Assembly: GCA_964347635.1 (NCBI GenBank)
Contig: CAYFZI010000001.1
Span: forward strand, 29,322 to 93,321
Length of the DNA: 64,000 nucleotides
Origin: an uncultured Dehalococcoidia bacterium
Lineage (GTDB): Bacteria; Chloroflexota; Dehalococcoidia; Bin125
Direction: 5' to 3'
The notes beneath the pieces are model-generated. The model did not search any database and was not told where the DNA came from. It saw nothing but the letters and a program-made list of their open reading frames with translations. Both the position numbers and the translations under genes were made by a program. Shown one piece after another: positions 3,948 to 46,141 of this stretch; the stretch's first letter is position 1; the number at the start of each line of letters is the position of its first letter.

Positions 3948-5182
3948 GCGCCGCCGCACCGCGCCCGCTGGCCGGGCGGCGCGTCGTGCTCGGTGTGACA
4001 GGCTCGATTTCGGCCTACAAAGCGGTCGAGCTGGCCCGCCGGCTCGAGGACGCCGGCGCGATCGTCGATGTCGCGCTGACGCCGTCTGCGGCCCGCTTCA
4101 TCCCCGCGCTGACGTTCCGCAGCCTGGTGCAGGGCGAAGTCGCCGCGGATCTCTGGGACCCGGCGGCGCCCGCGGAGCAGCACGTCGCGATGGGCCGCCG
4201 CGCCGACGCGGTGGTTGTCGCGCCGGCCTCGGCCACGACGCTGGCCAAGCTGGCGCAAGGGATCGGCGACAACGCCGTCACGCTGACGGCGCTGGCCAGC
4301 GCTGCGCCGTTGATCGCCGCGCCGGCGATGGATCAGGTGATGTACGGCCAGCCTGCGGTGCAGGCCAATCTGGAGCAGCTCAAGGCGCGCGGCGTGCTGC
4401 TGGCCGGCCCGGCCGAGGGGCGGCTCGCCAGCGGCGCGCGCGGGCTGGGGCGGCTGCTGGAGCCGCCGGAGCTGGCCGGTGCGGTCCGCTCGGCGATCGG
4501 CCGCCGCAGCGGGCCGATGCGCGGCCGGCACGTGATCGTGACGGCCGGCGGCACCCGCGAGCCGATCGACCCAGTGCGCTTCGTGGGCAACCGCTCGAGC
4601 GGCAAGATGGGCTTCGCGCTGGCCGAGGCGGCGCGCGACCGCGGGGCCGTGGTCACGCTGGTGACCACGCAGCCGCCGCCGCCCGGTCTCTTCGGCGTCG
4701 TGCTGCGGCGCGTCGAGACGGCGGTCGAGATGCAGGCCGAGATCGTCAAGGCCGCGCCCGGCGCCGACGCGCTGGTGATGGCCGCGGCGGTCGCCGACTA
4801 CCGCCCCGCCGAAGCCGCCGCGGAGAAGCTCAAAAAGACCGCCGCCGGCGGCAGCACACGCTCGCTCGAGCTCGTCGAGAACCCCGATGTCGTGGCCGGC
4901 ATCGAGGGCTCGCTGCTGAAGATCGGCTTCGCTGCGGAAACTGAGGACCTGCTCGAAAACGCCGCCGCCAAGATCGAAAAGAAGGGCCTGCGCTTCATCG
5001 CCGCCAACGATGTCTCCCAAGCGGACGCCGGCTTCGCCGTCGACACCAACCGCGTCGTGCTGCTCGACGGCGCCGGCGGGATCGAGCGGCTGCCGCTGCT
5101 GCACAAGTACGACGTCGCGGCGGCGATCTACGACCGCCTGGTGCGCGAGCCGGGCTGGCGCCGCGCTGCGCCGCCGCTGTAA
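3944..5182 (+). CDS. coaBC: Bifunctional phosphopantothenoylcysteine decarboxylase / phosphopantothenate-cysteine ligase
   Basis: N-terminal flavoprotein domain (VVLGVTGSISAYKAVELARRL) and C-terminal DFP/CoaB domain (HVIVTAGGTREPIDPVRFVGNRSSGKMG). It overlaps the coaX stop in a GTGA arrangement, indicating translational coupling. Confidence 0.92.
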   Translation: MSAAAPRPLAGRRVVLGVTGSISAYKAVELARRLEDAGAIVDVALTPSAARFIPALTFRSLVQGEVAADLWDPAAPAEQHVAMGRRADAVVVAPASATTLAKLAQGIGDNAVTLTALASAAPLIAAPAMDQVMYGQPAVQANLEQLKARGVLLAGPAEGRLASGARGLGRLLEPPELAGAVRSAIGRRSGPMRGRHVIVTAGGTREPIDPVRFVGNRSSGKMGFALAEAARDRGAVVTLVTTQPPPPGLFGVVLRRVETAVEMQAEIVKAAPGADALVMAAAVADYRPAEAAAEKLKKTAAGGSTRSLELVENPDVVAGIEGSLLKIGFAAETEDLLENAAAKIEKKGLRFIAANDVSQADAGFAVDTNRVVLLDGAGGIERLPLLHKYDVAAAIYDRLVREPGWRRAAPPL

Positions 5183-5373
5183 CGCCGCGGGCCGCGCCTG
5201 GCGCTTGGGCCCGTTCGCATTCAGCCGAGCGGGCCGCAGCGGATGTCAGCGTTGCGGAGGCCCGTGCGAACGCCCCTCTGCCCCTCCCCGCTTGCGGGAG
5301 GAGCGGCCGCGCAACGGCTGAGGAGGTTCCGCCGCCCCTGCCCCGATCCTGCCCTGATGAGGCAGCCTGCCCG

Positions 5374-5715
5374 CTACAAGTCCGCCATCAAGTCCTCTTT
5401 GAGCGGCTTCTTGCCTTCGGGCAGCGTGAAGAAGTTGCAGAAGCAGGTGCCCTCGAAGTCGACCAGGCCGTTGATGACGGGCTCGCAGACGCAGATCGTG
5501 TCGTCGTTGTTGGCCGGCTGGCAGGGGCAGTAGAACTTGCCGAAGCGCAGCCGCATCGAGACGAAGTCCTCGATCGTCTGGTCCCCGTTCATCAGGATGT
5601 AGCCGCGCTCCTCGCAGAAGCGGTCGGCCAGCTCGCGCATCTCTGCGCGGTACCGGCCGCGCAGGCGCGCCTCTTCTTCGGGCGGCAGGTCCGTGATCTG
5701 CTCTTCGGCGCTCAT
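5374..5715 (-). CDS. Ferredoxin:thioredoxin reductase catalytic-subunit-like protein (variant CPC/CVC/CFC motif)
   Basis: Protein MSAEEQITDL...FYCPCQPANNDDTICVCEPVINGLVDFEGTCFCNFF has three CxC pairs with FtrC-like spacing, but CFC replaces the canonical CHC. ATG at 5713-5715 with GGAGG upstream. It overlaps the pepA start by 4 bp (ATGA). Confidence 0.65.
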   Translation of the reverse strand: MSAEEQITDLPPEEEARLRGRYRAEMRELADRFCEERGYILMNGDQTIEDFVSMRLRFGKFYCPCQPANNDDTICVCEPVINGLVDFEGTCFCNFFTLPEGKKPLKEDLMADL

Positions 5716-7223
5716 GCTCCATCCTCCTCTGCTCGAGCCTGTGCGAAGCGCACCAGCGAGCGCACGGGGATGCCCGTTGCGCCTTTGACAAACACGCCGC
5801 GCGTCTGGCTGGCGTCGTCGGTGCCGGCCATGTCGAGGTGCGCCCAAGGCGTGCCGCCGGCGAACTTGGCCAGGAACTTGGCCGCCGTGATCGCGCCGGC
5901 CAGGCGGCCGCCGGTGTTCTTGACATCGGCGACCTGGCTGCGGATCTGTTCGTCGTACTCGCTGAACATCGGCAGCTGCCAGAATTTTTCGCCCGCCGCT
6001 TTGCCCGCCTCGATCACCTCCTGCGCCAGGCCGTCGTCGTTGGCCATCACGCCGGTCGCGACGTCGCCGAGCGCGACGGCGCAGGCGCCGGTCAGCGTGG
6101 CCACATCGATTAGCGGCGAGAGGCCGAGGTGGTTGGCGTAGGAGAGCGCGTCGGCGAGCACGAGGCGGCCTTCGGCGTCGGTGTTGATCACCTCGATCGT
6201 GGTGCCGTTCATCGCCGTCAGAAGGTCGCCGGGCTTGATCGCGGCGCCGCCCGGCATGTTTTCGGTGCAGGGCGCGAGCGCGGTCACGTTGAGCGGCAGG
6301 TTGAGGTCGGCGATCGCGCCCATCGCGGCGACAACCGCGGCGGCGCCGCTCATGTCCTGCTTCATCGCCTCCATATTGGCGGCCGGCTTAATCGAGATCC
6401 CGCCGGTGTCGAAGGTGATGCCCTTGCCGCAGTAGCCGATGCCCGGCTGATCGCCGCCGCCGCGGTGGCGCAGCACGAGGAAGCGGGCCGGCTGGTGCGA
6501 GCCGGCGGCGACGCCGAGGAACGAGCCCATGCCCAGCTCGCGGGCGGCGGCCTCATCGAGGATTTCGATCTCGACGCCGTGCCCGCCGGCCCAGGCTTCG
6601 GCGCGGGCGGCCAGCTCCGTTGGCGTCAGCAGGTTGCTCGGTTCGTTGGCGAGATCGCGGGCGAAGTTGGCCGCTCCGGCCAACGCGCGCCCCTGCGCAA
6701 CGCCGCGCGCCAGCGCCGCCGGCTCGCTGCCGTAGAGCACCGCCGCGCTGAGGCTGTTCGGCGCCTTGTCCGGCGCTCCGCCCGGCGTCTTGTGCCGGTC
6801 GAAGCGGTAGAGGCCCAGCTCGAGGCCTTCGGCGATCGCCGAGCCGAGCTGTTCGCGGGTCCAGCCGCAGCCTTCGCCGTCGACCGCGACGCCGAGCGTG
6901 CCGCCGGCGATCGCGCGGGCGCGCCGCGCCGCCCGCGCCGCCGCGTTGCGCACGTCGTCGAGCTCTGCCTGCTCGGGCGCGCCGATCCCGGCGAGCACGA
7001 CGCGCCCGGCCGGGATTCGGCCGAACGTGTGCAGCAGCACGGTCTCGCTGCGCGCGCCGCTGAGCTCGCCGCAGTCGGCCAGCGGAGCCAGCCCGCCGTC
7101 CAGCGCGTCGTTCAGCGCGCCCGCCGTGCCGCTCGTGATCAGCTCGCCGCCCTTGGTAGTGAAGACGATGAGGTGATCGAGCTCGGCCTCAAGCGGCGCC
7201 GCGCCGCTGGTGGTGATGTCCAT
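5712..7223 (-). CDS. pepA: Leucyl aminopeptidase (M17 family)
   Basis: M17 signature NTDAEGRLVLADAL and the GKGITFDTGGISIKP and MKQDMSGAA motifs are present. Confidence 0.93.
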   Translation of the reverse strand: MDITTSGAAPLEAELDHLIVFTTKGGELITSGTAGALNDALDGGLAPLADCGELSGARSETVLLHTFGRIPAGRVVLAGIGAPEQAELDDVRNAAARAARRARAIAGGTLGVAVDGEGCGWTREQLGSAIAEGLELGLYRFDRHKTPGGAPDKAPNSLSAAVLYGSEPAALARGVAQGRALAGAANFARDLANEPSNLLTPTELAARAEAWAGGHGVEIEILDEAAARELGMGSFLGVAAGSHQPARFLVLRHRGGGDQPGIGYCGKGITFDTGGISIKPAANMEAMKQDMSGAAAVVAAMGAIADLNLPLNVTALAPCTENMPGGAAIKPGDLLTAMNGTTIEVINTDAEGRLVLADALSYANHLGLSPLIDVATLTGACAVALGDVATGVMANDDGLAQEVIEAGKAAGEKFWQLPMFSEYDEQIRSQVADVKNTGGRLAGAITAAKFLAKFAGGTPWAHLDMAGTDDASQTRGVFVKGATGIPVRSLVRFAQARAEEDGA

Positions 7224-28822: not shown

Positions 28823-29734
28823 TTACGGTACGGCTCCGCGTGTGCGGGCGACGGCGGCGGCGAGCGCCGCTGCATCCGCCGCGCCCGTCAGCCGTTCGCG
28901 GTAGACGCCGCTGCGGTCGATCAGCAGCAGCTCCGGCAGGCCGTCGATGCGGTAGTGGACGGCCGCGGCCGCCTCGCGGTCGATCACGCTGGGGATGCCC
29001 AACGCGGCTTCGACAAAGGCCCGCGCGGCTGCGCCCGGTGCGTCGTAGACGTTGATCGCCAGCACGGCCAGATCGCCCTCGGCGCCGCCAAGGCGGCGCC
29101 ATAGCTCGTCGAGCTGCCGCAGCAGCTCGAGATCACCCGTGTTCCAGGAGGCCCAGAAGACCAGCACGACCGTCTTGCCCCGGAAGTCGGAGAGCGCCGC
29201 GCTCCCTTCGCCTTCCAACCGCGGCAGCGTGAAGTTGGGCGCCGGCTGGCCGCGCTGCAGCCGCGCCGCGCCCGCTTCGATGCTGGGCGGGATCTGGTCC
29301 GCTGCAGCCCGAATCGAGGCCGGCGAGCTGCGCAGCCAGCGATCGACGGCCGCCGCCTGCCAGCTGAAGAAGCGGCGCTCCGGCATGATCGTGCGCACCG
29401 CGCCGCCCAGCTGCACGGACAGCGCGACTTCGACTCGGCCGTCGGCGTTGCGCCGCACCCGCACCCGCAGCGAGGCTGCGCCGTGCTCCACCGCCGAGGA
29501 CTGCAGCCAGCGGTCAACGGGCGCCTGCGCGTAGGGGAAGAAGCGGGCGCGGGGGCAGCGCCGCTGCGACTCTTCGGTCAGCTCGAGGCAGAGCTCGACA
29601 CGGCCGTCCTGCGCTTTGCGGGCAGCGATGCGCACCTCGACGGTATCGCCCTGCGCGTCGACTGCGGCGCCGCCGAGCAGCGCGGCCAGCAGGCCGAGCA
29701 GCGCCGCCGCCAGCGCCAGCCGCGCCATGCTCAA
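28823..29734 (-). CDS. Secreted protein: 2x novel N-repeat + redox-inactive TlpA-like thioredoxin-fold domain
   Basis: Signal peptide, then two copies of the EVRIAARKAQDGRVELCLEL...FFPYAQAPVDRWLQSS repeat, homologous to the N-terminal domain of the 38683-42984 array. The C-terminal domain aligns to TlpA/ResA (PAPNFTLP...GKTVVLVFWASWNTGD...GLPELLLIDRSG), but the WCxxC active site is replaced by WNTGD. Confidence 0.7.
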   Translation of the reverse strand: MSMARLALAAALLGLLAALLGGAAVDAQGDTVEVRIAARKAQDGRVELCLELTEESQRRCPRARFFPYAQAPVDRWLQSSAVEHGAASLRVRVRRNADGRVEVALSVQLGGAVRTIMPERRFFSWQAAAVDRWLRSSPASIRAAADQIPPSIEAGAARLQRGQPAPNFTLPRLEGEGSAALSDFRGKTVVLVFWASWNTGDLELLRQLDELWRRLGGAEGDLAVLAINVYDAPGAAARAFVEAALGIPSVIDREAAAAVHYRIDGLPELLLIDRSGVYRERLTGAADAAALAAAVARTRGAVP

Positions 29735-35320: not shown

Positions 35321-36520
35321 ATGAGTCGAACCCCGGTGCCCCACAGCGAGTGGCTCGAGGCCGCGGAAGCAGTTGGGCCGACCCTGCGCGGGCATGCCGA
35401 GCAGAACGAGCAGCTGCGCCGCCTGGCCCCGCCCGTGGTCGAGGCGCTGCGTGCTGCGCGGTTGTTCTCGATCTTCGCGCCGACCGAGGTTGGCGGCGGC
35501 AACCTCGATCCCGCTGGGCACCTCGAGGTCATCGCGGCGCTGACAGCGCACGACGGCTCGGCCGGCTGGTGCGCGATGATCGGCGCGCACGAATCGGCCT
35601 GGCTCGGCGCGCGTCTGCCCGAGTCCGGCATCGAGCGCGTCTTTGGCGCCGCGCAGTGGCCGATCACAGCAGGGCAGCCCTTTCCCGGCGGCGAAGCGCG
35701 GCCCGCGCCGGGCGGCTGGCGGCTCAGCGGACGCTGGGGCTGGGGCTCCGGCATCCACCACGCCGATTGGGTGATAGCGCAGGCGCGGATCGTCGATGGA
35801 CCTGGCGCAGAGCCAGGTGCAGAAACAGGCGCGGCCGAGAGCGAGGCGGGGCCGCCTGAACTGCTCACCGCCGTTGTCCCGCGCGCGCAGGTCGAAATCG
35901 AGGACACCTGGCATGTCGCCGGGATGCAGGGCACAGGCAGCAGCCACTACCGGCTCGAAGACGAATTCGTCAGCGCGGATTTTCGCCTGCAGCCCTTTGA
36001 GCAGCCGCCCCTGCGCGGCTCCGGCTGGGTCGCGCGGCCGACCCTCACCTTCCTCTGCCCGGCAGCCTTCGGGATCGCGCTGGGGCTGGCGGAGCGCGCG
36101 ATCGAGGAAGCGGCGGCGCTCGCCGCGACGCGTGTGCGGCTCGGCGCGCGCGCGCCGCTGGCCGAGCGCGAGCTCTTCCAGCGCGAGCTGGGCGAGCTGG
36201 CCGCAACCGCGCGCGCGATCCGCGGGCACGGCCTCGAGCTCTTCCGCGGGCTGGCTGAGGCGCCCGTGCGCAGCGTCTCCGACGCCGTGCAGATGGACGA
36301 CACCGCACGCAGCGCCGCCGCCTGGGCGACGCGCAGCGCCGAGTCGGTCGTGCGCACCGCCCACCGCGCCGCCGGCGGCGACGCCGTCTTCCTCGATCAC
36401 CCCCTCCAGCGCCTGCTGCGCGATGTGCAGACCGCCTCCCAGCATGTGGTCGTTTCCGACAACGCCTTCCAGCGCCTCGGCCGCCACACGCTCGGCCTGC
36501 CGGTGCGGCCCGGCCTGTGA
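35321..36520 (+). CDS. Acyl-CoA-dehydrogenase-like flavin-dependent monooxygenase/hydroxylase (group D), paralog 1
   Basis: ACAD type-2 fold without the CoA-thioester catalytic base pattern. TWHVAGMQGTGSSHYRLEDEFV is typical of HsaA/DszC/HpaB-like two-component monooxygenase oxygenases. Confidence 0.7.
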   Translation: MSRTPVPHSEWLEAAEAVGPTLRGHAEQNEQLRRLAPPVVEALRAARLFSIFAPTEVGGGNLDPAGHLEVIAALTAHDGSAGWCAMIGAHESAWLGARLPESGIERVFGAAQWPITAGQPFPGGEARPAPGGWRLSGRWGWGSGIHHADWVIAQARIVDGPGAEPGAETGAAESEAGPPELLTAVVPRAQVEIEDTWHVAGMQGTGSSHYRLEDEFVSADFRLQPFEQPPLRGSGWVARPTLTFLCPAAFGIALGLAERAIEEAAALAATRVRLGARAPLAERELFQRELGELAATARAIRGHGLELFRGLAEAPVRSVSDAVQMDDTARSAAAWATRSAESVVRTAHRAAGGDAVFLDHPLQRLLRDVQTASQHVVVSDNAFQRLGRHTLGLPVRPGL

Positions 36521-36582
36521 CCCGCCGAAGAGCGTGCGGATCGCTATGCTGGGTACCTGCTGAGAACCGAGGAGTGCTGGCG

Positions 36583-37116
36583 ATGCGCACTGCACTCGAG
36601 GTCGCTAAGTACTTTCTCAGCCTCGCCGCTGAACAGGGCGACGAGCTGAGTCAGCTGAAGCTGCAGAAACTCTGTTACTACGCGCAGGGCTACAACCTGG
36701 CGATGCGCGGCCAGCCGCTGTTCGACGACCCGATTGAGGCATGGGAGAAAGGCCCGGTCGTGCGGGGCCTGCGGCGTCATTTCGGGCCTCACGGTGAGAA
36801 CCCCATCCCTGCCGATCCGACGTTTGACCGAGAGGAGGCCTGCGGCGTTCGGGAAAGCGCGCTGCTGCACGCCGTCTACCGCGAGTTCCGCGCTGCGAGC
36901 GGCTCCGATCTCGTGACCGCGACTCACGGCGAACGGCCGTGGCAAGAGGCGCGCCAGAATGATGCGAACCTCTGCACCAATACCATGCGCGACCACTTCC
37001 TGCAGCGGCTTGAGTGCTCCGAGCGGCCCGCGCCGGTCTACCGATACTCACTGGAAGAGTCCTTGGCGCGCTCTGCAGCCGATATCGCCGCAGGCCGCTA
37101 CCGGCCGCTTCGGTGA
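36583..37116 (+). CDS. Panacea (DUF4065) domain protein, SocA/PanA antitoxin-like
   Basis: MRTALEVAKYFLSLAAEQGDELSQLKLQKLCYYAQGYNLAMRGQPLFDDPIEAWEKGPVV matches the Panacea domain signature. GAGGAG RBS. Sits between the two monooxygenase paralogs. Confidence 0.7.
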   Translation: MRTALEVAKYFLSLAAEQGDELSQLKLQKLCYYAQGYNLAMRGQPLFDDPIEAWEKGPVVRGLRRHFGPHGENPIPADPTFDREEACGVRESALLHAVYREFRAASGSDLVTATHGERPWQEARQNDANLCTNTMRDHFLQRLECSERPAPVYRYSLEESLARSAADIAAGRYRPLR

Positions 37117-37453: not shown

Positions 37454-38641
37454 GTGAGCCGAACGACTCCGCAGCGCCGGCGCGAGCGCAGCGACTGGCT
37501 CGGCCGCGCTGAGGCGATCCATTCGACCCTGCGCGGGCACGCCGCCGAATCGATTCAGCTGCGCACCCTCGCGCCCGCCTCGGTCGATGCGCTGGAGGCG
37601 AGCGGCATCTTCGCCGTCTCCGGCCCCGAGGAAGTGAACGGCTTCGCCGTTCATCCGACAACGCAGCTGGAGCTGTTCGCCGAGCTTGCGCGCGCCGATG
37701 TCTCAGCCGCCTGGTGCGCGATGATTCAGGCGCAAACGACCGGCCTGGCCGCAGCCCACTTGCAGGACGGTGAACCACTCGACACCGTTTTCGGACCGTC
37801 CTACCCGCGCACCGCCGGCACCGCGAATCCGGAGGGCGAAGGGCTGCCCTGCGCGGGCGGGCATCGGCTCTCGGGGCGCTGGTCGTTCGCCAGCGGGATC
37901 CGCCACTGCGGTTGGGTGCTGGCCAATGTGCGCCTGCTCGACGCCGACGGCCAGCCGCGCCGGCTGGAGAGCGGGGCGCCGCGCATCACAGCGGTCGCCG
38001 TGCCGACCAGCGAGCTGGATATTGAAGACAGCTGGCACGTGATGGGGCTCGAAGGCACCGGCAGCTCGCATTACCGCATGCACGATCTGTTCGTGCCCAG
38101 CGAGTTCGAGCTGCCCTTCGGCGGGCCCAACCCGCGGCGCGGCAGCGCCTGGTTTGATGTGCCCACGATCACCTTCCTCAGCCCCGGCCACGCCACGATC
38201 CCGCTCGGCGCGGCGGAGCGCGCGCTCGAGCTGCTGCGCGAGGCTGCGACGCGGGTGCGCTTCGGGACCAGCACCTCGATCGGCGCGCGCGGCGCCTTTC
38301 AGCGCGATTTCGGGGTCGCCTCGCACCGCTGCGAAGCGGCCCGCGCCCACGCGGTCGACGTGCTCGACGGCGCTATGGCGCAGCGCGAGCGCGGCGAACC
38401 GATCACGCCGGCCGACGACGCCCGCATCCGCGGCATGGTCGCTTGGGTCACCGACACCTGCCTCGAGGTGGTGCGGTTCGCCCACCACAGCCTCGGCGGC
38501 GCGGCCGCCTTCCGCGAACACCCGCTGCAGCAGATCCTGCGCGATCTCAGCGCCGCCGCGCAGCACATGTTCGTCGCCGACACCGCCTACGAGCGCAGCG
38601 GCGCGCTGCGCCTCGGCCAGCGCCCGCCCGGCGCGCTCTAG
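37454..38641 (+). CDS. Acyl-CoA-dehydrogenase-like flavin-dependent monooxygenase/hydroxylase, paralog 2
   Basis: Homologous to 35321-36520 from the N-terminus (VSRTTPQRRRERSDWL vs MSRTPVPHSEWL; SWHVMGLEGTGSSHYRMHDLFV). GTG start. Confidence 0.7.
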   Translation: MSRTTPQRRRERSDWLGRAEAIHSTLRGHAAESIQLRTLAPASVDALEASGIFAVSGPEEVNGFAVHPTTQLELFAELARADVSAAWCAMIQAQTTGLAAAHLQDGEPLDTVFGPSYPRTAGTANPEGEGLPCAGGHRLSGRWSFASGIRHCGWVLANVRLLDADGQPRRLESGAPRITAVAVPTSELDIEDSWHVMGLEGTGSSHYRMHDLFVPSEFELPFGGPNPRRGSAWFDVPTITFLSPGHATIPLGAAERALELLREAATRVRFGTSTSIGARGAFQRDFGVASHRCEAARAHAVDVLDGAMAQRERGEPITPADDARIRGMVAWVTDTCLEVVRFAHHSLGGAAAFREHPLQQILRDLSAAAQHMFVADTAYERSGALRLGQRPPGAL

Positions 38642-38682
38642 GGCGCCGCGCCTGCCCCGCGCTGCGGCGGCAGCGCAGCAGC

Positions 38683-39678
38683 TCAGTAGTGGCCGCAGCG
38701 CGCGATGTTCTGCTGCAGCGGCGAGTCGAACAGCCCCAAGATCTCGAAGAACACTGTGAACCGCTCGCCGCGGATCTCGACGTGCATCCGCACATCCGAA
38801 GCGCCGCGCAGCTGTCCTGCGAATGCGCGCGGCGCGTCAGAGCTCACCGCGCCGCGGGGTTCCTCGGGGCCGCCGTGGATGTGCCATTTCGCTGAGCTGA
38901 GCGCTCCGCCGTCCACCGCCCAGAACACGGACGCCTCCGGAAACTCGACCTCGCCCAGCGGCGGCAGCCAGTACAGCTGCGCTATGAACTCCCGGTTGCT
39001 GCAGATCAAGGCCAGCCGGGCCCGCTCGTGCCCCTCGACGCCGGTCTTCTCGGAGATCACAGCGACGATCGTTGTCAGGTCCCTCTGCCCTCCGTCGTAG
39101 ACGGTGCCGTAGAGGATGCCGTCGGCCGTGGCGTCGCTGTCGACCGCGATCGGCTTGAACGCCGGGTCGACGGTCGTCGCCCACCAGGATTCCGCTGCTG
39201 CTGCGGCGGGGTCGAACTGCAGCGCGATCGGCGACGTCCGCAGCCAGCGGAAGTGCCTCGTATTGGAGGGGAAGTAGCGCCTGGGGGGCAGCATCAGCGC
39301 GCTCCACCAACCGTCGTTCCGGAGCTGCTGGAGGCCGAATTCCACGCGCCCGCCGCCGTCCCGCCGCATCGCGATTCGCACCTCGGTGATCGAGACGCTG
39401 CCGCCGCTCTCGATCCGCAGCTGGATCGGCGTGCCCTTATACCAGCGCGCGTGCGCCGCGTCTGCCCCAAACAGCCAGGTGCCGTGCTCCTCGTAGCTGC
39501 CCCAGGCGCCCCCGGCGCCGCGCCGCTGCAACCCCAATTCATAGCCGCCGCCAATGTGGTTGCGTGCGGCGACCCGAACCTCCAGCTCCAGCGGTGCGGC
39601 CGCCGCGCGCTCCGCAAGCGCCGCCGCAGCAAGCGCCGACAGCAGCACAAACACGGCCAGCAGTACGGCCTGCCCCAT
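38683..39678 (-). CDS. Novel secreted paralog A: signal peptide + 2x N-repeat + C-domain ending CGHY
   Basis: Signal peptide MGQAVLLAVFVLLSALAAAALA. Two N-repeats: EVRVAARNHIGGGYELGLQRRGAGGAWG... and EVRIAMRRDGGGRVEFGLQQLRNDGWW...RRYFPSNTRHFRWLRTSPIAL. The C-terminal domain (LTTIVAVIS...LICSNRE...FEILGLFDSPLQQNIARCGHY) is shared with the three upstream genes. Confidence 0.75.
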   Translation of the reverse strand: MGQAVLLAVFVLLSALAAAALAERAAAAPLELEVRVAARNHIGGGYELGLQRRGAGGAWGSYEEHGTWLFGADAAHARWYKGTPIQLRIESGGSVSITEVRIAMRRDGGGRVEFGLQQLRNDGWWSALMLPPRRYFPSNTRHFRWLRTSPIALQFDPAAAAAESWWATTVDPAFKPIAVDSDATADGILYGTVYDGGQRDLTTIVAVISEKTGVEGHERARLALICSNREFIAQLYWLPPLGEVEFPEASVFWAVDGGALSSAKWHIHGGPEEPRGAVSSDAPRAFAGQLRGASDVRMHVEIRGERFTVFFEILGLFDSPLQQNIARCGHY

Positions 39679-39806
39679 CCGCAGTACAGCTCCAACAGCC
39701 CTAGGCCTGCACGCACGCATCGGCGCACTCCTATTCAAGCTCACAGCCAGGCAGCGCCCTACCCTACCGCGCCTGCGCAGCGCGGCGGCGCGCCTATTTC
39801 CTGTCG

Positions 39807-40829
39807 TCAGTACTCGCCGCAGCGATCGAGGTTGGGCTGTATGGGGGTGTCGAAGAGGCGGGCGACCGCGAACTCGAATGTTTCGAGGTCGCCGTCGTTG
39901 TCGCGGCCGCGGATCACGACCGTTTCAGCGTTGCGCAGCTGTTCCGCAAAACCGCGGTCATCGGGCGGGCTGGCCGCGGTGCTGAGGTTGCCGTCATCGA
40001 CGATCTCCCATTTCGCCGCGACCGCGTCTGCTTGGTTAATCCGATACTCCATGTCGAGTTCCCGCTCCAAAAACGTGAACGGCATGCCGGTCACGACGAC
40101 CTGAAAATCACCCTCGAAACAACCGAGCAGGAGCATTGCGGGCTCGATTTCGAACGAACTGGCCTCAGTGTGCCGGACGCTGATCAGGCTGGTCAGAGCG
40201 TCGTCGATCGGGTCGCGGGTGGTTGTGTAGAAGACATACTCGCCGAGTTGTGTAACGCTCTCGTCCTCGTAGGGGGCGAACGCTTCGTCCTCCTCGGATC
40301 CCGCCGCATCTTCTGCATCCTGAGCCGCTGCTGCTTCGTCTTGCTCCCCATCCTGCTCATCGGCCCCCGGCAGCGGGTCGCCGGCGGCCCAGTCTGCAGG
40401 CGGTATCAGAATCTCGCGGCCGATATTGAGGATAGTGTCGAGCTCCAGATCCTCATTGAAGGCGAGCAGATTGTTGATGTCGACGCTGTACCGCCGGGCG
40501 AGCCGATAGAGCGTGTCGCCGGCGCTGACGGTGTGCACGGCGGCGGGCTGTATCGGTTCGGGCTGGGGCTGTTCCTGCTGAACGGCCGCGTCCGCCTGCC
40601 CGCCCGCATCCTCGGCAGCAGGCTGCGGCTGCTCCTCCGCGGGTTGAGCCTGTTCCTGCGGTTCGGGCTGCGGCTCCGGCGCGGGGCGCTGCGACTCGAT
40701 CCGCGTCTGCTCAGCGCCGTTCTGCTCCTCATCGTCGCCGCTCCTGCCGACGATCACCACCAGAGCAACAAAGCCGACCAGCAAGAGCAGCCCGATCGCC
40801 GCGATGATGCCGAGGCAGCCCTGCGCCAT
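39807..40829 (-). CDS. Novel paralog B: TM anchor + Pro/Gln/Glu-rich linker + LysM domain + C-domain ending CGEY
   Basis: N-terminal TM helix (IIAAIGLLLLVGFVALVVIV). LysM (HTVSAGDTLYRLARRYSVDINNLLAFNEDLELDTILNIGREILIPP). C-domain (LTSLISVRHTE...LLLGCFEG...FAVARLFDTPIQPNLDRCGEY). Its ATG overlaps the upstream gene's stop as TGATG. Confidence 0.78.
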   Translation of the reverse strand: MAQGCLGIIAAIGLLLLVGFVALVVIVGRSGDDEEQNGAEQTRIESQRPAPEPQPEPQEQAQPAEEQPQPAAEDAGGQADAAVQQEQPQPEPIQPAAVHTVSAGDTLYRLARRYSVDINNLLAFNEDLELDTILNIGREILIPPADWAAGDPLPGADEQDGEQDEAAAAQDAEDAAGSEEDEAFAPYEDESVTQLGEYVFYTTTRDPIDDALTSLISVRHTEASSFEIEPAMLLLGCFEGDFQVVVTGMPFTFLERELDMEYRINQADAVAAKWEIVDDGNLSTAASPPDDRGFAEQLRNAETVVIRGRDNDGDLETFEFAVARLFDTPIQPNLDRCGEY

Positions 40830-42040
40830 CAGTACTGCCCGCAGTAGTCCAAATTGGCCTGAACCGGCGTCTCAAACAGGCCCGCCAGCGGCAACTGTAT
40901 GTGCTGGCTGCCGCTGCCTGGGTTGATGTGGAATTCGAGCACGCGCGCTTGGCGCAGCTGCGCGATGAACGCAGCGTCGTCATCCGGGCTGATCCCTGAC
41001 TCTACCGAGAAGACAAACATCCAACGATGCGTGGTCGCTGCTCGACCGTCAAGTCGAACACTCGTAACTGGCGTACTTTCTATCTCGGTGATCCAGAGCC
41101 AGAGCGCGCTGTCATTGAGAATGATATCAAGCCGATCGACGTCACAGATCATGTGCAGTGTGCCACTGCCTCTTCTGAGAGTGACGCCTGTGGTCAGGGC
41201 TGTTGGATCCAGATGCGGGCTCACCCAGTATTCGATATCGATGAAGACGAGACCGTTTGTCTCGCCCAAGAGGGCAACCCCTCCAGGTGTGGAACGTCCG
41301 CAGTAGTCGATGTTCGGCTGGGCCGGCGTAGTGAAAAGCCCGGCCAAATCTATCGTCGCACCGCCAGAGCTCCCTCCTCCGAATTGAACGGTCAGCGTCT
41401 GTGAACGCTTGAGCCGTTCCACAAACGTCGCATCGTCGTCGGGGCTGTACCCAGAGGTGGCACCGCGGTAGGAGCGCCAATTGACAGTTTCGATTTCGCC
41501 CCCGTCGAAGCGCAGCAAGATCACTTCACCGTCGCCGTAGAAAAACCGATAGTCCCAGTCAACCAATACATCAAACTTGCCTTGGGCGCAGACCAGTTCA
41601 ATCGAAAAATCGTTGGCATGCGTGCGGACGATGGTGGTGAGCGTGTCGCTCAGGGGGTCGCGCTCGACTTCGTACCAGAGATCCGCTTCGCCCGTGCCGA
41701 TCGTCTCTCTGGCGGGTTTCCAGCCCGCCGGCGGATTCGGCCCCGGCTGCGGGCGCGCCGCAACAGGCGCCGGCGCCGGCGCGCCGACTGTGAGCGGCGA
41801 GCTGTTCAGCCAGCGATCATGGTCGATTTCGGCGGGGAGGTAGCGGGCTTGCGGGAGTTGGCGCTCGCCCCAGTCGCCGCCGCCGTGGCGCTGCTGCAGG
41901 CCGAACTCAGTGCGACCGTCGTCGAGGCGCCGGACGCTGATCCGAACCTCGGTGTCCCCCTCCACAGCGCGGACTGTGAGCGTCGCGATGCCGGCGATCA
42001 GCGCCAGCACCACCAAGCCGATGACGCTGTTCCTGGCCAT
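40829..42040 (-). CDS. Novel paralog C: signal/anchor + N-repeat + Pro-rich linker + 2x C-domain (ending YCGRS / YCGQY)
   Basis: MARNSVIGLVVLALIAGIATLTVRAVEGDTEVRISVRRLDDGRTEFGLQQRHGGGDWGERQLPQARYLPAEIDHDRWLNSSPLTV. Two tandem C-domains: ...LTTIVRTHANDFSIELVCAQG...DLAGLFTTPAQPNIDYCGRS and ...HMICDVDRL...LPLAGLFETPVQANLDYCGQY. Confidence 0.78.
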   Translation of the reverse strand: MARNSVIGLVVLALIAGIATLTVRAVEGDTEVRISVRRLDDGRTEFGLQQRHGGGDWGERQLPQARYLPAEIDHDRWLNSSPLTVGAPAPAPVAARPQPGPNPPAGWKPARETIGTGEADLWYEVERDPLSDTLTTIVRTHANDFSIELVCAQGKFDVLVDWDYRFFYGDGEVILLRFDGGEIETVNWRSYRGATSGYSPDDDATFVERLKRSQTLTVQFGGGSSGGATIDLAGLFTTPAQPNIDYCGRSTPGGVALLGETNGLVFIDIEYWVSPHLDPTALTTGVTLRRGSGTLHMICDVDRLDIILNDSALWLWITEIESTPVTSVRLDGRAATTHRWMFVFSVESGISPDDDAAFIAQLRQARVLEFHINPGSGSQHIQLPLAGLFETPVQANLDYCGQY

Positions 42041-42174
42041 AGCCCGCGCCTTTCCAGCAGCTCACTCGCCGAATGGAGGAGGCAAGCGGGAAAGCTACAG
42101 CCCGAAAGCTGCGCGATCAACCGCCGCCGTGCTCTGCATTGCCGCCGCCCGGATGAACGCGGGGCGGCCTTGGC

Positions 42175-42984
42175 TCAATTGGCGCCCGCAGTGCTCTGCC
42201 CGCAGTTAAGAAGGTTGCGGTGCACCGGAGTCTCAAGCAGGCCTTCAATGTCCAGCGTGATTGGGCTGGGAGATCTCGACCACAATCTGATCGTGAGTGT
42301 GGAGCGGCCCCGCAAGCTGTTCAGAAATGGCCCGGCATCGCTTGGCCCATAACCTGCAGTGCCTATGGCCGGCCATGTGCTCTGCTGCAACGGGCCGTCG
42401 TCAATGCGCCACTCAACCTCTTGGGTGCCGCTGACGTAGTACCAGTCGTCATCGGCTACATACACACGCAGTCGGTCGCTGCACAAGATTATCAACTCGA
42501 GCGGATCCTCCAGAAATCCAGGGCCAGGGTCTTCCTCACTAGTCCGAACTATGGTGCTCACCGTGCCATCAAACGGATCTCGGGATACGAAGAATCGAAT
42601 ATTCTCGCTGGTCTCTCCACCGGCCCACACCAGCCCTTCCGTCGGCAGTAGGGAGATGCCCCCTTCCAGCAAATGGCCGTGGATCGCGGAGGCCGCGCTG
42701 TCGGCCGTCAGCTCATCCTCGGCGGGGCCCAGCGTGAGCGGTGAGCTGTTCAGCCAGCGATCGTGGTTGACTTCGGCGGGGAGGTAGCGGGCTCGCGGGA
42801 ATTGGCGCTCGCCCCAGTCGCCGCCGCCGTAGCGCTGCTGCAGGCCGAACTCGGTGCGGCCGTCGTCGAGGCGCCGGACGGTGATCCGAACCTCGGTGTC
42901 CCCCTCCACAGCGTGGACTGTGATCGTCGCGATGCTGGCGATCAGCGCCAGCGCGAGCAAACCGATGACGCTGTTCTTAACCAT
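42175..42984 (-). CDS. Novel paralog D: signal/anchor + N-repeat + C-domain (ending NCGQS)
   Basis: MVKNSVIGLLALALIASIATITVHAVEGDTEVRITVRRLDDGRTEFGLQQRYGGGDWGERQFPRARYLPAEVNHDRWLNSSPLTL is ~90% identical to the N-terminus of C. The C-domain is ...VSTIVRTSEED...LIILCSDRL...DIEGLLETPVHRNLLNCGQSTAGAN. ATG at 42984. Confidence 0.75.
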   Translation of the reverse strand: MVKNSVIGLLALALIASIATITVHAVEGDTEVRITVRRLDDGRTEFGLQQRYGGGDWGERQFPRARYLPAEVNHDRWLNSSPLTLGPAEDELTADSAASAIHGHLLEGGISLLPTEGLVWAGGETSENIRFFVSRDPFDGTVSTIVRTSEEDPGPGFLEDPLELIILCSDRLRVYVADDDWYYVSGTQEVEWRIDDGPLQQSTWPAIGTAGYGPSDAGPFLNSLRGRSTLTIRLWSRSPSPITLDIEGLLETPVHRNLLNCGQSTAGAN

Positions 42985-43119
42985 ATTTTGTGTTCTCTCA
43001 ACCGTTCGCACGCCGAATCGCAGGCGGCAAGCGGGAAAGCTACAGCCCGAAAGTTGCGCGATCAACCGCCGCCGGCGCAGCGAGCAGGAGGGGCGCTGGG
43101 GCGCGGCGCGCCTGCGCTG

Positions 43120-44688
43120 TTACTCGTTTTTGGCTTCCCCGTGCGTTTTGCGCAGGTCGTTCTTCAGCACTTTGCCCATGTGGTTGCGGGGCAGGCTTTC
43201 GACTACAGCCAGGTAGGTCGGCGCTTTGTAGCTGGCCAGCTGCGCTTTGGTGTAGGCGACGGCGTCGTCGAGCGTGAAGCTGCGGCCTTCATGCAGGATT
43301 ACAACGGCCTTGACAACTTCGCCCCACTCGAGGTCGGGCGCGCCGATCACCGCGGCCTCCGCCACCGCCGGGTGGCCCTCCAGCACCTGCTCGATTTCGC
43401 CCGGCGCGATGTTCTCGCCGCCGCGGATGATCAGATCTTTGGTGCGGCCGGTGATGAATAGGTAGCCCGCGTCGTCGAGGTAGCCGACATCGCCGGTGTG
43501 CAGGATGCCGTTGCGGATCGCTGAGGCGGTTTCCTCTTCCTGCTTGTAGTAGCCGGCCATGATGCGGTCGCCGCGGACGCAGATTTCGCCCTCTTCGCCT
43601 GGCCCAACGGGGTTATCGGCGGGGTCCAGGATCAGCACCTCGATATCGGGCATGACCTTGCCGACAGAGCGCAGGCGGTGCTCTTTGAGCGCGATCTCCT
43701 CGGCCGAGCCTTCGAGCCGGTGGTCGTCGGGGCCGAGGAAGGAGATGGAGCTGGTCGACTCGGTCTGGCCGTAGGCGTTCATAAAGCCGACGTTGGCGGG
43801 GAAGAGATCGACGGCGGCGCGGATCACGTCGTAGGGCATCGGCGCCGCGCCGTAGGTCAGCAGCTCGAGCGTTTCACCGTTGAACTTGGCGAAGTCCTCG
43901 TGCTCCATGGTGCGCTTGAGCATCGTGGGCACGATCATCGAGTGGGTGATCCCGTGCCCGTCGACGGCGTCGATCCAGGCGGTAGGCGAGAACTGGGGCA
44001 GAATCACGAGCGTGCGCCCGCCCCAGATCGAGGAGATCATCGTGGTCGCGCCGGCGATGTGGAAGAGCGGGACGCTCAGCAGCGTCTTCTGGTGCGGCGC
44101 TTCGGGATCCGCCGGCGACATCGTGTTGGTCACGTAGACGGTTAGATCCTGGTAGGTGACCTGAACGCCTTTGGGCATCGCGGTGGTGCCGGAGGTGTAG
44201 ATGATCACGGTCGGGTCTTTATCGTCGACCTCCGCCCAGACGAAGTCTTCGGAGCCCATCGCCATCAGGTCGTTGTAATGCTTCTGGGTGAGGTGCTGCG
44301 ATTCGAGCGAGATGTAGTGCTCGACGCTGGGGCAGCGCTCGGCGATCGCGTCGACCAGCGGCTGATAGCGGTCGGAGACGAAGATCAGCTTCGTCTCGGC
44401 AGTGTTGATCATGTACGTGAGCTCTTCGCGCTTGGCGCGGTAGTTGAGCGGTACGAACGTGATCCCGAGCTTGGCGCAGGCGTAGTAGATGATCACATAC
44501 TCGGCAGAGTTGACAGACATCACGCCGACATGGTCGCCGCGGCTCAGCCCGAGCCCCTGCAGCGCGTTGGCCAGGCGGGTCACCTCGGCGGAGAGCTCGG
44601 TGTAGGTCTTGACCGTGCCCCCGCAGATCAGCGCTGCTCTATCGGGCACCATGGCGGAGCTGAGTTCGAGGAAGTCGGCGGTATTCAT
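43120..44688 (-). CDS. Long-chain-fatty-acid--CoA ligase (AMP-dependent synthetase)
   Basis: AMP-binding motif IIYTSGTTAMPKGV, YGQTE, and the C-terminal GEI/GK region (ASYKAPTYLAVVESLPRNHMGKVLK). Confidence 0.92.
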   Translation of the reverse strand: MNTADFLELSSAMVPDRAALICGGTVKTYTELSAEVTRLANALQGLGLSRGDHVGVMSVNSAEYVIIYYACAKLGITFVPLNYRAKREELTYMINTAETKLIFVSDRYQPLVDAIAERCPSVEHYISLESQHLTQKHYNDLMAMGSEDFVWAEVDDKDPTVIIYTSGTTAMPKGVQVTYQDLTVYVTNTMSPADPEAPHQKTLLSVPLFHIAGATTMISSIWGGRTLVILPQFSPTAWIDAVDGHGITHSMIVPTMLKRTMEHEDFAKFNGETLELLTYGAAPMPYDVIRAAVDLFPANVGFMNAYGQTESTSSISFLGPDDHRLEGSAEEIALKEHRLRSVGKVMPDIEVLILDPADNPVGPGEEGEICVRGDRIMAGYYKQEEETASAIRNGILHTGDVGYLDDAGYLFITGRTKDLIIRGGENIAPGEIEQVLEGHPAVAEAAVIGAPDLEWGEVVKAVVILHEGRSFTLDDAVAYTKAQLASYKAPTYLAVVESLPRNHMGKVLKNDLRKTHGEAKNE

Positions 44689-45638: not shown

Positions 45639-45881
45639 TTAGCGCCAGTCGGGGCGGCGGATCTCGCTCTTGCGGCGCACTTCCCACAGCCGTTCGATGT
45701 CTGCGTTGATCTTCTCGTGCAGCGCATCCATCTCTTCGCGGCCGGGGCGCATCTCGTTGGATTTCCAGCGGCGCACGGCAGCGCGATCGGACTTTTCCAG
45801 CTCGGTTTCGTCCAGCATGCGGCTGATGATGCGGTTCATCACCGCCCACGCCTCTTCGATATCAAGCTCGACTTTGACCAT
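45639..45881 (-). CDS. Small hypothetical protein (80 aa), paralog of 45893-46141
   Basis: MVKVELDIEEAWAVMNRIISRMLDETELEKSDRAAVRRWK... shares EEAW..M.......LD..EL......A.R.W......GR with the adjacent ORF. Confidence 0.5.
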   Translation of the reverse strand: MVKVELDIEEAWAVMNRIISRMLDETELEKSDRAAVRRWKSNEMRPGREEMDALHEKINADIERLWEVRRKSEIRRPDWR

Positions 45882-45892
45882 GGCGGGCGCTC

Positions 45893-46141
45893 CTAGCGAA
45901 CGGTGCGGTAGTAGTCGCGGCGGCGGATCGTGCGGGTCAGTTCAGCGTCGATCGTGTTGCCGAGCGCTTCGTTGACGGCGGCGGCGAATTCGACCATCGC
46001 CGGGCGGCCCTCTTCGAGCCCGGCGCGCCACTCGCGGATCGCTTTGACGCCCGCGTCGCTCAGCTCGACTTGGTCGAGCACTTGCGCGGTGACCAAGGTC
46101 ATCAGCGACCAGGCCTCTTCTTCGTCGAGCATTAGGCGCAT
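45893..46141 (-). CDS. Small hypothetical protein (82 aa), paralog of 45639-45881
   Basis: MRLMLDEEEAWSLMTLVTAQVLDQVELSDAGVKAIREWRAGLEEGRPAMVEF... is a tandem paralog of 45639-45881 in the same orientation, inside the crotonase gene train. Confidence 0.5.
   Translation of the reverse strand: MRLMLDEEEAWSLMTLVTAQVLDQVELSDAGVKAIREWRAGLEEGRPAMVEFAAAVNEALGNTIDAELTRTIRRRDYYRTVR

Follow-up and report, generated by a model that had tools for sequence, protein, structure and literature searches.

A predicted membrane-anchored LysM protein with a remote VasI/TagO- and IalB-like domain, encoded next to a paralogue with an export signal in a Dehalococcoidia genome

The stretch of DNA analyzed here (the window) comprises 64,000 nucleotides (nt) of contig CAYFZI010000001.1, from assembly GCA_964347635.1 of an uncultured Dehalococcoidia bacterium, and carries on its minus strand an array of four paralogous genes, D-C-B-A, of which gene B is our subject. 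Gene B (39807..40829, stop codon 39807-39809) encodes a protein of 340 amino acids (aa), and its ATG is the first possible start after an in-frame stop 14 codons upstream. The initial annotation described the same open reading frame (ORF) with its end placed at 40831; this end takes in the stop codon of gene C, and the start codon of B ends at 40829. B orthologues share the start M[AL]QGCL, and a protein identical to B in a public protein collection (P0162) carries a precomputed LysM match. Gene C (40829..42040), the upstream paralogue, encodes 403 aa with an export signal, and hidden Markov model (HMM) searches located in it one N-terminal repeat (N-repeat, ~41783-41953) and two copies of a C-terminal domain (C-domain, 41291-41722 and 40832-41290). 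Comparison of B with its orthologue in a second locus, L006 (ENA contig_16, 282 kb), revealed 26.5 synonymous and 7.5 non-synonymous differences, with a ratio of non-synonymous to synonymous substitution rates (dN/dS) of 0.08. The corresponding ratios were 0.22 for C, 0.20 for A and 0.45 for D, the highest of the array. B is a genuine gene under strong purifying selection. Long ORFs also run over B on the plus strand (39028..40104 and 40032..40847), as is usual in DNA with 70% guanine plus cytosine (GC), and if one of these were the true gene the ORF of B would be spurious. This possibility is refuted by the dN/dS of the minus-strand frame, its significant LysM match, a confident fold and hundreds of homologues; because of that dN/dS, the overlapping plus-strand ORFs were taken as the usual artefacts of high-GC DNA.

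The elements of B follow in the order anchor, acidic linker, LysM, acidic linker and VasI/IalB-like C-domain. A Kyte-Doolittle scan revealed a putative signal-anchor or transmembrane helix at about residues 6-28 (40746..40814, minus strand). The best 19-residue window covered residues 8-26 with a mean of 3.22, compared with 1.33 for the next best, and the scan detected no second hydrophobic segment in B. The anchor has no cleavage site with small residues at -3/-1 and its C-terminal flank is acidic; the flank charges together with the domain content suggest an N-in/C-out orientation. By composition, linker 1 (residues 29-97; 40539..40745, minus strand) is rich in Gln, Glu, Ala and Pro (Q 22%, E 17%, A 17%, P 17%; net charge -13), and linker 2 (residues 144-183; 40281..40400, minus strand) is rich in Ala, Asp and Glu (over residues 145-183, A 31%, D 21% and E 18%, with a net charge of -15). 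The LysM domain (residues 99-143; 40401..40535, minus strand) matched PF01476 over model positions 1-43 of 43 with an expect value (E) of 6.7e-10 and a score of 39.2 bits, above the Pfam gathering cut-off of 20.9 bits. The LysM call of the initial annotation thus stands on the search that was proposed there to check it. The other elements predicted for B, a membrane anchor, a long acidic and Pro-rich linker and a C-domain shared with the paralogues, are likewise all present, and HMM searches bore out that the N-repeat is missing from B and present in C and D (one copy each) and in A (two copies).

LysM was the sole Pfam match in B, and an NCBIfam scan gave only sub-threshold LysM or low-complexity matches. 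A PADLOC match to PD-T4-6 (E = 5.8e-4) was rejected as compositional, as it falls on the anchor and the low-complexity linker. Identification of B as a phage endolysin was also rejected; the PHROGs endolysin matches reflect the LysM alone, and no lytic domain is present. Closer in layout are the bitopic LysM proteins, namely the surface-associated proteins of NF042931 (SAG1386/EF1546) and YneA-type proteins, with which B has in common an anchor at the N-terminus, then a spacer of low complexity and one LysM predicted to lie outside the membrane. The match to NF042931 was weak and partial (residues 6-139 of B, E = 1.6e-5), and its score of 25 bits, where membership requires 80, leaves B outside this family. 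These bitopic proteins end after the LysM or bear other effectors, whereas B bears its VasI/IalB-like domain after a second spacer.

Genes C and B meet at the sequence TGATG (40827..40831, minus strand), in which the stop codon of C, TGA (40831-40829), and the start codon of B, ATG (40829-40827), have one base in common. The plus strand reads cat at 40827-40829 and tca at 40829-40831; the minus strand reads ...CAG TAC TGATG GCG CAG. The one-base overlap claimed in the initial annotation can therefore be read directly, and the same TGATG is found in L006, where the full D-C-B-A array is kept in an unchanged gene neighbourhood. In each of the six loci retrieved, the gene directly upstream of the B-type gene is a C-type gene in the same orientation: the window, L006, L001 (GCA_022823685.1), L005 (OZ241849.1, a Dehalococcoidia metagenome-assembled genome), L007 and L008. 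Across these loci the C-type genes encode 403-415 aa with an export signal, an N-repeat and two C-domains, and the genes around the pair differ. The conserved unit is the C-B pair, not the four-gene array.

A promoter-like element, TTGATC-N17-TAGCTT, was identified upstream of C (42091..42120, minus strand), with a copy upstream of D (43036-43065, minus strand). Both lie within a near-identical block of ~40 nt, GGTTGATCGCGCA[G/A]CTTTCGGGCTGTAGCTTTCCCGCTTGCC, which occurs on the minus strand upstream of C (42081-42120) and D (43026-43065) and is conserved in L006. A strict sigma-70 consensus scan found no promoter; the element is too weak for that scan. No terminator-like site was found between C and B, and three minus-strand terminator-like matches all fell inside coding sequence and were taken as chance. 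An Rfam scan of 38400-43300 revealed no RNA family, and a regulatory hairpin at the C/B junction or in the B-A spacer was not supported, folding there being no more stable than in shuffled sequences. Co-transcription of C and B from the promoter-like element upstream of C is likely on this arrangement. No Shine-Dalgarno-like or GGAG-like motif occurs in the 20 nt before the ATG of B in the window. Because B lacks a ribosome-binding motif and its ATG overlaps the stop of C, it may be translated by ribosomes finishing C, and termination-reinitiation at the TGATG is a reasonable account of how B would be coupled to C. The UGAUG junctions of trpE-trpD and trpB-trpA in Escherichia coli are translationally coupled. 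The C-B junction has an identical geometry, with TGATG and one shared base; the two genes run in the same direction and B shows no ribosome site of its own. Coupling at the trp junctions was demonstrated experimentally, whereas for C-B it is read from the sequence and the orthologues of more distant loci lack the overlap.

Analysis of the C-domain supported the claim that it is common to B and C. BLASTP with residues 184-340 of B matched the first copy in C at E = 3e-14, with 30% identity over 142 residues, and the second copy at E = 4e-11. In B the domain (39810..40280, minus strand) is, in an AlphaFold2 model, a beta-sandwich, and it has two conserved Cys. It measures ~155 aa and occurs once each in A, B and D and twice in C. 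The four paralogues have in common two invariant Cys, one Trp and the C-terminal motif GLFxTPxQxNLDxCG. The Cys pair is nearly invariant across the C-domain family, is also present in the VasI member P0147, and probably forms a disulfide. Taken together, the conserved residues (Cys, Trp, Asp, Thr-Pro, Asn, Cys-Gly) suggest a role in structure or binding and not in catalysis.

Neither Pfam nor NCBIfam assigned A, C or D to a family, the C-domain has no Pfam match of its own, and a sequence search of the Protein Data Bank (PDB) with the C-domain profile returned nothing at E <= 10. A word-indexed homologue search gave only 5 clusters; an exhaustive profile search covering 1.84 billion representatives corrected the family size to 742 cluster representatives at E <= 1e-3, with 137 at E <= 1e-10 and 35 at E <= 1e-30. 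A second word-indexed search, limited to 8000 candidates, contributed B-type orthologues alone. When 128 family members were scanned against Pfam, 9 carried LysM and 3 matched VasI (PF11319) at E <= 1e-3. One of these three, P0147, is a full-length Pfam VasI match (46.9 bits, cut-off 26.5). It was matched by the C-domain profile at E = 3.4e-10, and hhalign of a 49-sequence C-domain alignment against it gave a probability of 97.2% (E = 3.5e-11, 96 columns). The AlphaFold2 model of the B C-domain was confident (predicted local distance difference test, pLDDT, 93.5; predicted template modelling score, pTM, 0.88) and consisted of the beta-sandwich, a helix at residues 108-115 and a short C-terminal helix. 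A Foldseek search of the PDB with this model placed 3DTD (IalB of Bartonella henselae) in all of the top six positions, with template modelling (TM) scores of 0.54-0.63, probabilities of 0.99-1.0 and E values from 1.4e-2 to 7.7e-2; the next target had a TM score of <= 0.31. Matches in BFVD (TM ~0.6) were all to uncharacterised phage proteins, and the PHROGs match was to phrog_1848, to which no function is assigned. On the strength of the profile, hhalign, model and Foldseek results, we place the C-domain within the VasI/TagO and IalB-like group, as a distant branch that has no annotation. This homology puts the domain in the envelope and says nothing of what it does there. The family extends to giant members that are not in the window (P0007-P0010, P0012 and P0018; ~1150 aa), in which two N-repeats are followed by 5-6 tandem C-domains. 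Four further members (P0030, P0040, P0044 and P0104) contain several hundred residues without any Pfam match.

Compared with VasI/TagO (PF11319), the C-domain of B is homologous at the profile level, has the same size and the same exported location, and places its two Cys in the same positions, one in mid-strand and one near the C-terminus. The differences are also clear: A, B, C and D gave no PF11319 match even at E <= 1 (gathering threshold 26.5 bits), and the N-terminal C...RLxCYD segment of the proteobacterial members P0147 and P0140 is missing. The C-domain is here fused to LysM or N-repeats or occurs in as many as six copies. The host is probably a monoderm, and genes for type VI secretion were found neither near the array in the window nor in L001 and L005-L008. 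IalB (3DTD; COG5342) is the best and only convincing structural match, extending over the whole domain, and IalB proteins are exported envelope proteins, as the C-domain proteins appear to be. Identity to the B C-domain was only 5-8%, the Foldseek E value was only about 1e-2, and PF06776 gave no match; IalB proteins are moreover single-domain, alphaproteobacterial and without LysM. RgsG, an IalB-domain protein of Sinorhizobium meliloti, is essential, periplasmic and located at the growing pole, its molecular function being likewise unassigned (PMC7327166).

The distribution of LysM across the family was then set against the C-domain phylogeny. Among the matches listed, the seven closest B-type orthologue clusters (P0003, P0004, P0011, P0159-P0161 and P0163) have the anchor, acidic linker and C-domain but no LysM, with 50-62% identity to B in the C-domain. 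In a neighbour-joining tree of C-domains, B fell within the B-type clade. A separate LysM clade comprised P0107, P0114, P0130, P0141, P0116, P0134 and a paralogue in L008; its members carry LysM just before the C-domain, and P0116 and P0134 also have an N-repeat. LysM has thus been fused before the C-domain in two separate clades. A single gain in the lineage of the window is more parsimonious than at least two losses; the LysM of B is probably a lineage-specific addition and not a family trait. Identity between the LysM of B and those of the LysM clade was 29-47%, the same range as within the clade (46% to the L008 paralogue). Its acquisition by exchange with a LysM-type paralogue is possible, the 29-47% identity being compatible with such an exchange and not diagnostic of it. 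The L008 paralogue itself (988-1968, 326 aa) sits between a PIN-domain gene, which is upstream of it, and the C-B pair, which follows directly, and it consists of an anchor, an acidic linker, LysM and a divergent C-domain without the terminal TPVQxNLDxCG motif.

From the LysM of B, the initial annotation had argued for a cell-wall function of the whole family, and this argument held only in part. It is supported by the export signals and the Cys pair in all paralogues and by the second clade with LysM; it is weakened by the absence of LysM from the closest B-type orthologues and by the small share of members that carry LysM (9/128). That LysM has been fused in two clades speaks most strongly for action of the C-domain at the LysM ligand, which would most likely be peptidoglycan.

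Of the remaining paralogues, gene A (38683..39720, minus strand) lies 86 nt downstream of B, with AGGAG preceding its ATG. It encodes a 345-aa protein identical to P0022, with a signal peptide and, by HMM, two N-repeats and one C-domain. Gene D (42175..42984, minus strand) encodes 269 aa, identical to P0001, with a signal and, by HMM, one N-repeat and one C-domain. As called mechanically, the ORF of D (42175-43065) would begin with the TTG at 43065 and take in the promoter-like block; database proteins and the orthologue use the ATG at 42984 (MVKNS...). A, C and D all have N-terminal hydrophobic export signals. The N-repeat spans ~57 residues and was found by HMM in 89 of 169 family proteins. 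It also occurs outside the family, in a 303-aa ORF of the window (28823..29734, minus strand) in which two N-repeats are followed by an AhpC/TSA-redoxin (thioredoxin-like) domain instead of a C-domain. Judging from this unrelated redoxin ORF, exported proteins use the N-repeat as a portable module. A model of the tandem N-repeats of A was all-beta and of fair confidence (pLDDT 88.4), and a fold search of the PDB with it returned no convincing match, the best being the teichuronic-acid-bound UmbA4 lectin complex (TMq only 0.33), with Kelch blades at ~0.2. An extracytoplasmic, wall-zone location of the family is well supported because of the export signals, the conserved Cys pair, the LysM fusions and the N-repeat on a redoxin.

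Peptidoglycan synthesis is ancestral in Dehalococcoidia and retained in orders 1-9, and the cultured high-GC Tepidiforma has a membrane, a ~40-nm periplasm with a ~20-nm peptidoglycan layer, and an S-layer (PMC10284905). The layout of B, with its anchor, 70-residue spacer, LysM, 40-residue spacer and globular domain, would fit an envelope of the Tepidiforma type. We propose, with a probability of roughly 0.55, that B is a bitopic envelope protein, co-transcribed and translationally coupled with C, which takes part in a membrane-to-wall assembly positioned by LysM. In this model, a transcript covering C and B would start at the promoter-like element before C, and ribosomes finishing C would go on to translate B, giving the two products in a fixed ratio. 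The single N-terminal helix would anchor B in the cytoplasmic membrane with the remainder outside, as a long acidic, probably extended spacer, the LysM, a second acidic spacer and the beta-sandwich of ~155 residues. C and B would then act together in the zone bounded by the membrane on one side and the wall or S-layer on the other, with B as the membrane-anchored member whose LysM holds the distal domain at the peptidoglycan layer. Co-function of C and B is plausible from the conserved pairing, and we infer peptidoglycan as the ligand of the B LysM.

Several observations weigh against this model. The distance between C and B is -1 nt in the window and in L006, and 29, 29, 60 and 66 nt in the other four loci, where the spacers carry GGAG/GAGAGGA-like motifs. 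The window, L004 and L006, whose proteins are 83-98% identical from D to B, are the only loci in which the one-base overlap was seen, and short overlaps are common in related loci, with examples of 1, 4 and 8 nt between unrelated neighbours. RNA structure at the junction was not unusual compared with shuffled sequences (z = +1.0), so nothing points to a sequestered start by which coupling would be enforced. The closest B orthologues manage without LysM, which means that wall binding through LysM is not essential to a B-type protein, and some orders of Dehalococcoidia have lost peptidoglycan (PMC10284905). The related families are also of little help for function: that of VasI/TagO is listed as 'Unknown' in a 2026 review (PMC13584744), which makes a binding or scaffold role of the C-domain a guess, and IalB acts 'by an unknown mechanism' (PMC7327166).

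The spacing, overlap and RNA data would suit an account in which the overlap reflects mere genome compaction, with B initiated independently and C and B being neighbouring tandem duplicates that are related neither in stoichiometry nor physically. As expected on this account, duplication has clearly enlarged the array, D and C sharing the duplicated upstream block. The order C then B and the orientation are nevertheless kept in all six loci, in lineages that are ~50-60% identical, which argues for selection on the pair, and B in the window has no Shine-Dalgarno-like motif of its own. We consider compaction alone unlikely, while granting it an appreciable chance of being right.

The coupled, wall-positioned model also assumes a particular ligand. 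LysM domains bind chitin as well as peptidoglycan. The LysM of B could accordingly bind foreign polymers of N-acetylglucosamine (GlcNAc), such as chitin or the peptidoglycan of other cells, and the family would then consist of adhesins or sensors. The loss of peptidoglycan in some Dehalococcoidia is in keeping with this, as are the lack of LysM in B-type orthologues, which makes it look like an accessory specificity module, and the similarity of the N-repeat model to the UmbA4 lectin complex. That Foldseek match is weak, however; the spacers of ~70 and ~40 residues reach the wall layer better than the exterior of the S-layer, and no glycoside hydrolase or transporter genes were found in the conserved neighbourhood. 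Binding of foreign polymers is on these grounds a rather improbable role for B.

The dN/dS values and the copy numbers bear on yet another explanation, in which the array is a fast-diversifying surface family, S-layer-associated or serving as phage receptors or decoys, and B is one structural variant of it. Four tandem paralogues are present, D evolves faster than the others (0.45), copy number varies to the extreme of six domains per protein, and the fold is found in uncharacterised phage proteins (phrog_1848 and the BFVD matches). B, C and A are in contrast under clear purifying selection, and B-type and C-type proteins form old, stable clades. We regard this explanation as very improbable and retain the model of a coupled C-B pair at the wall.

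The window as a whole has ~70% GC and is rich in genes of acyl-CoA metabolism. The neighbours of the array are acyl-CoA dehydrogenase, AMP-ligase, enoyl-CoA hydratase and Panacea-domain genes. GC dips to 0.63-0.64 at 40001-44000, compared with ~0.70 elsewhere, over B, C, D and the AMP-ligase gene; horizontal transfer or the make-up of the acidic linkers may lie behind this dip. The SocA/Panacea antitoxin-domain gene (36517-37116, plus strand) lies between two acyl-CoA dehydrogenase-like genes and occupies the same place in L006. Two small ORFs (45639-45881 and 45893-46141, minus strand; 80 and 82 aa) are paralogous and arranged in tandem. Pfam assigns them to no family, and the matching position in L006 (6842-7344) holds genes of these same lengths. 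In L005, a minus-strand gene (4755-6545) encodes a 596-aa protein built of the repeat SAG..H(S/T)CGLRE(S/T)GE(I/L/V)ECWG, its final segment (...GRLADGRTELG...) being similar to the beginning of the N-repeat.

Neither the LysM call nor the overlapping start of B is out of the ordinary, and much of the remainder is routine annotation improvement. New here are the VasI/TagO- and IalB-like identity of the C-domain, the C-B pair as a unit, and a probably lineage-specific LysM that mirrors an independent fusion. VasI/TagO and IalB-like proteins are widespread in envelopes and include a Bartonella invasion factor and RgsG, and the locus reveals a large unannotated branch of this superfamily (742 representatives) in genomes of Chloroflexota type, probably of monoderms. 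Two new Pfam-type families could be defined, one for the C-domain branch and one for the N-repeat. The consistent pairing of a membrane-anchored form with a secreted multi-domain form leads to the hypothesis of a two-component assembly at the peptidoglycan layer. In its widest form, which we put forward tentatively and which is doubtful as a whole, the C-B pair and its paralogues would make up an envelope module, not described before, of Chloroflexota that contain peptidoglycan: an assembly reaching from membrane to wall, built from VasI/IalB-like domains, in which B holds the secreted C in the wall zone, the recurrent LysM fusion marks peptidoglycan, and the N-repeat is a new wall- or S-layer-targeting module that is also used on an exported redoxin. 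If true, this would provide the first functional handle on the orphan VasI/TagO-IalB superfamily.

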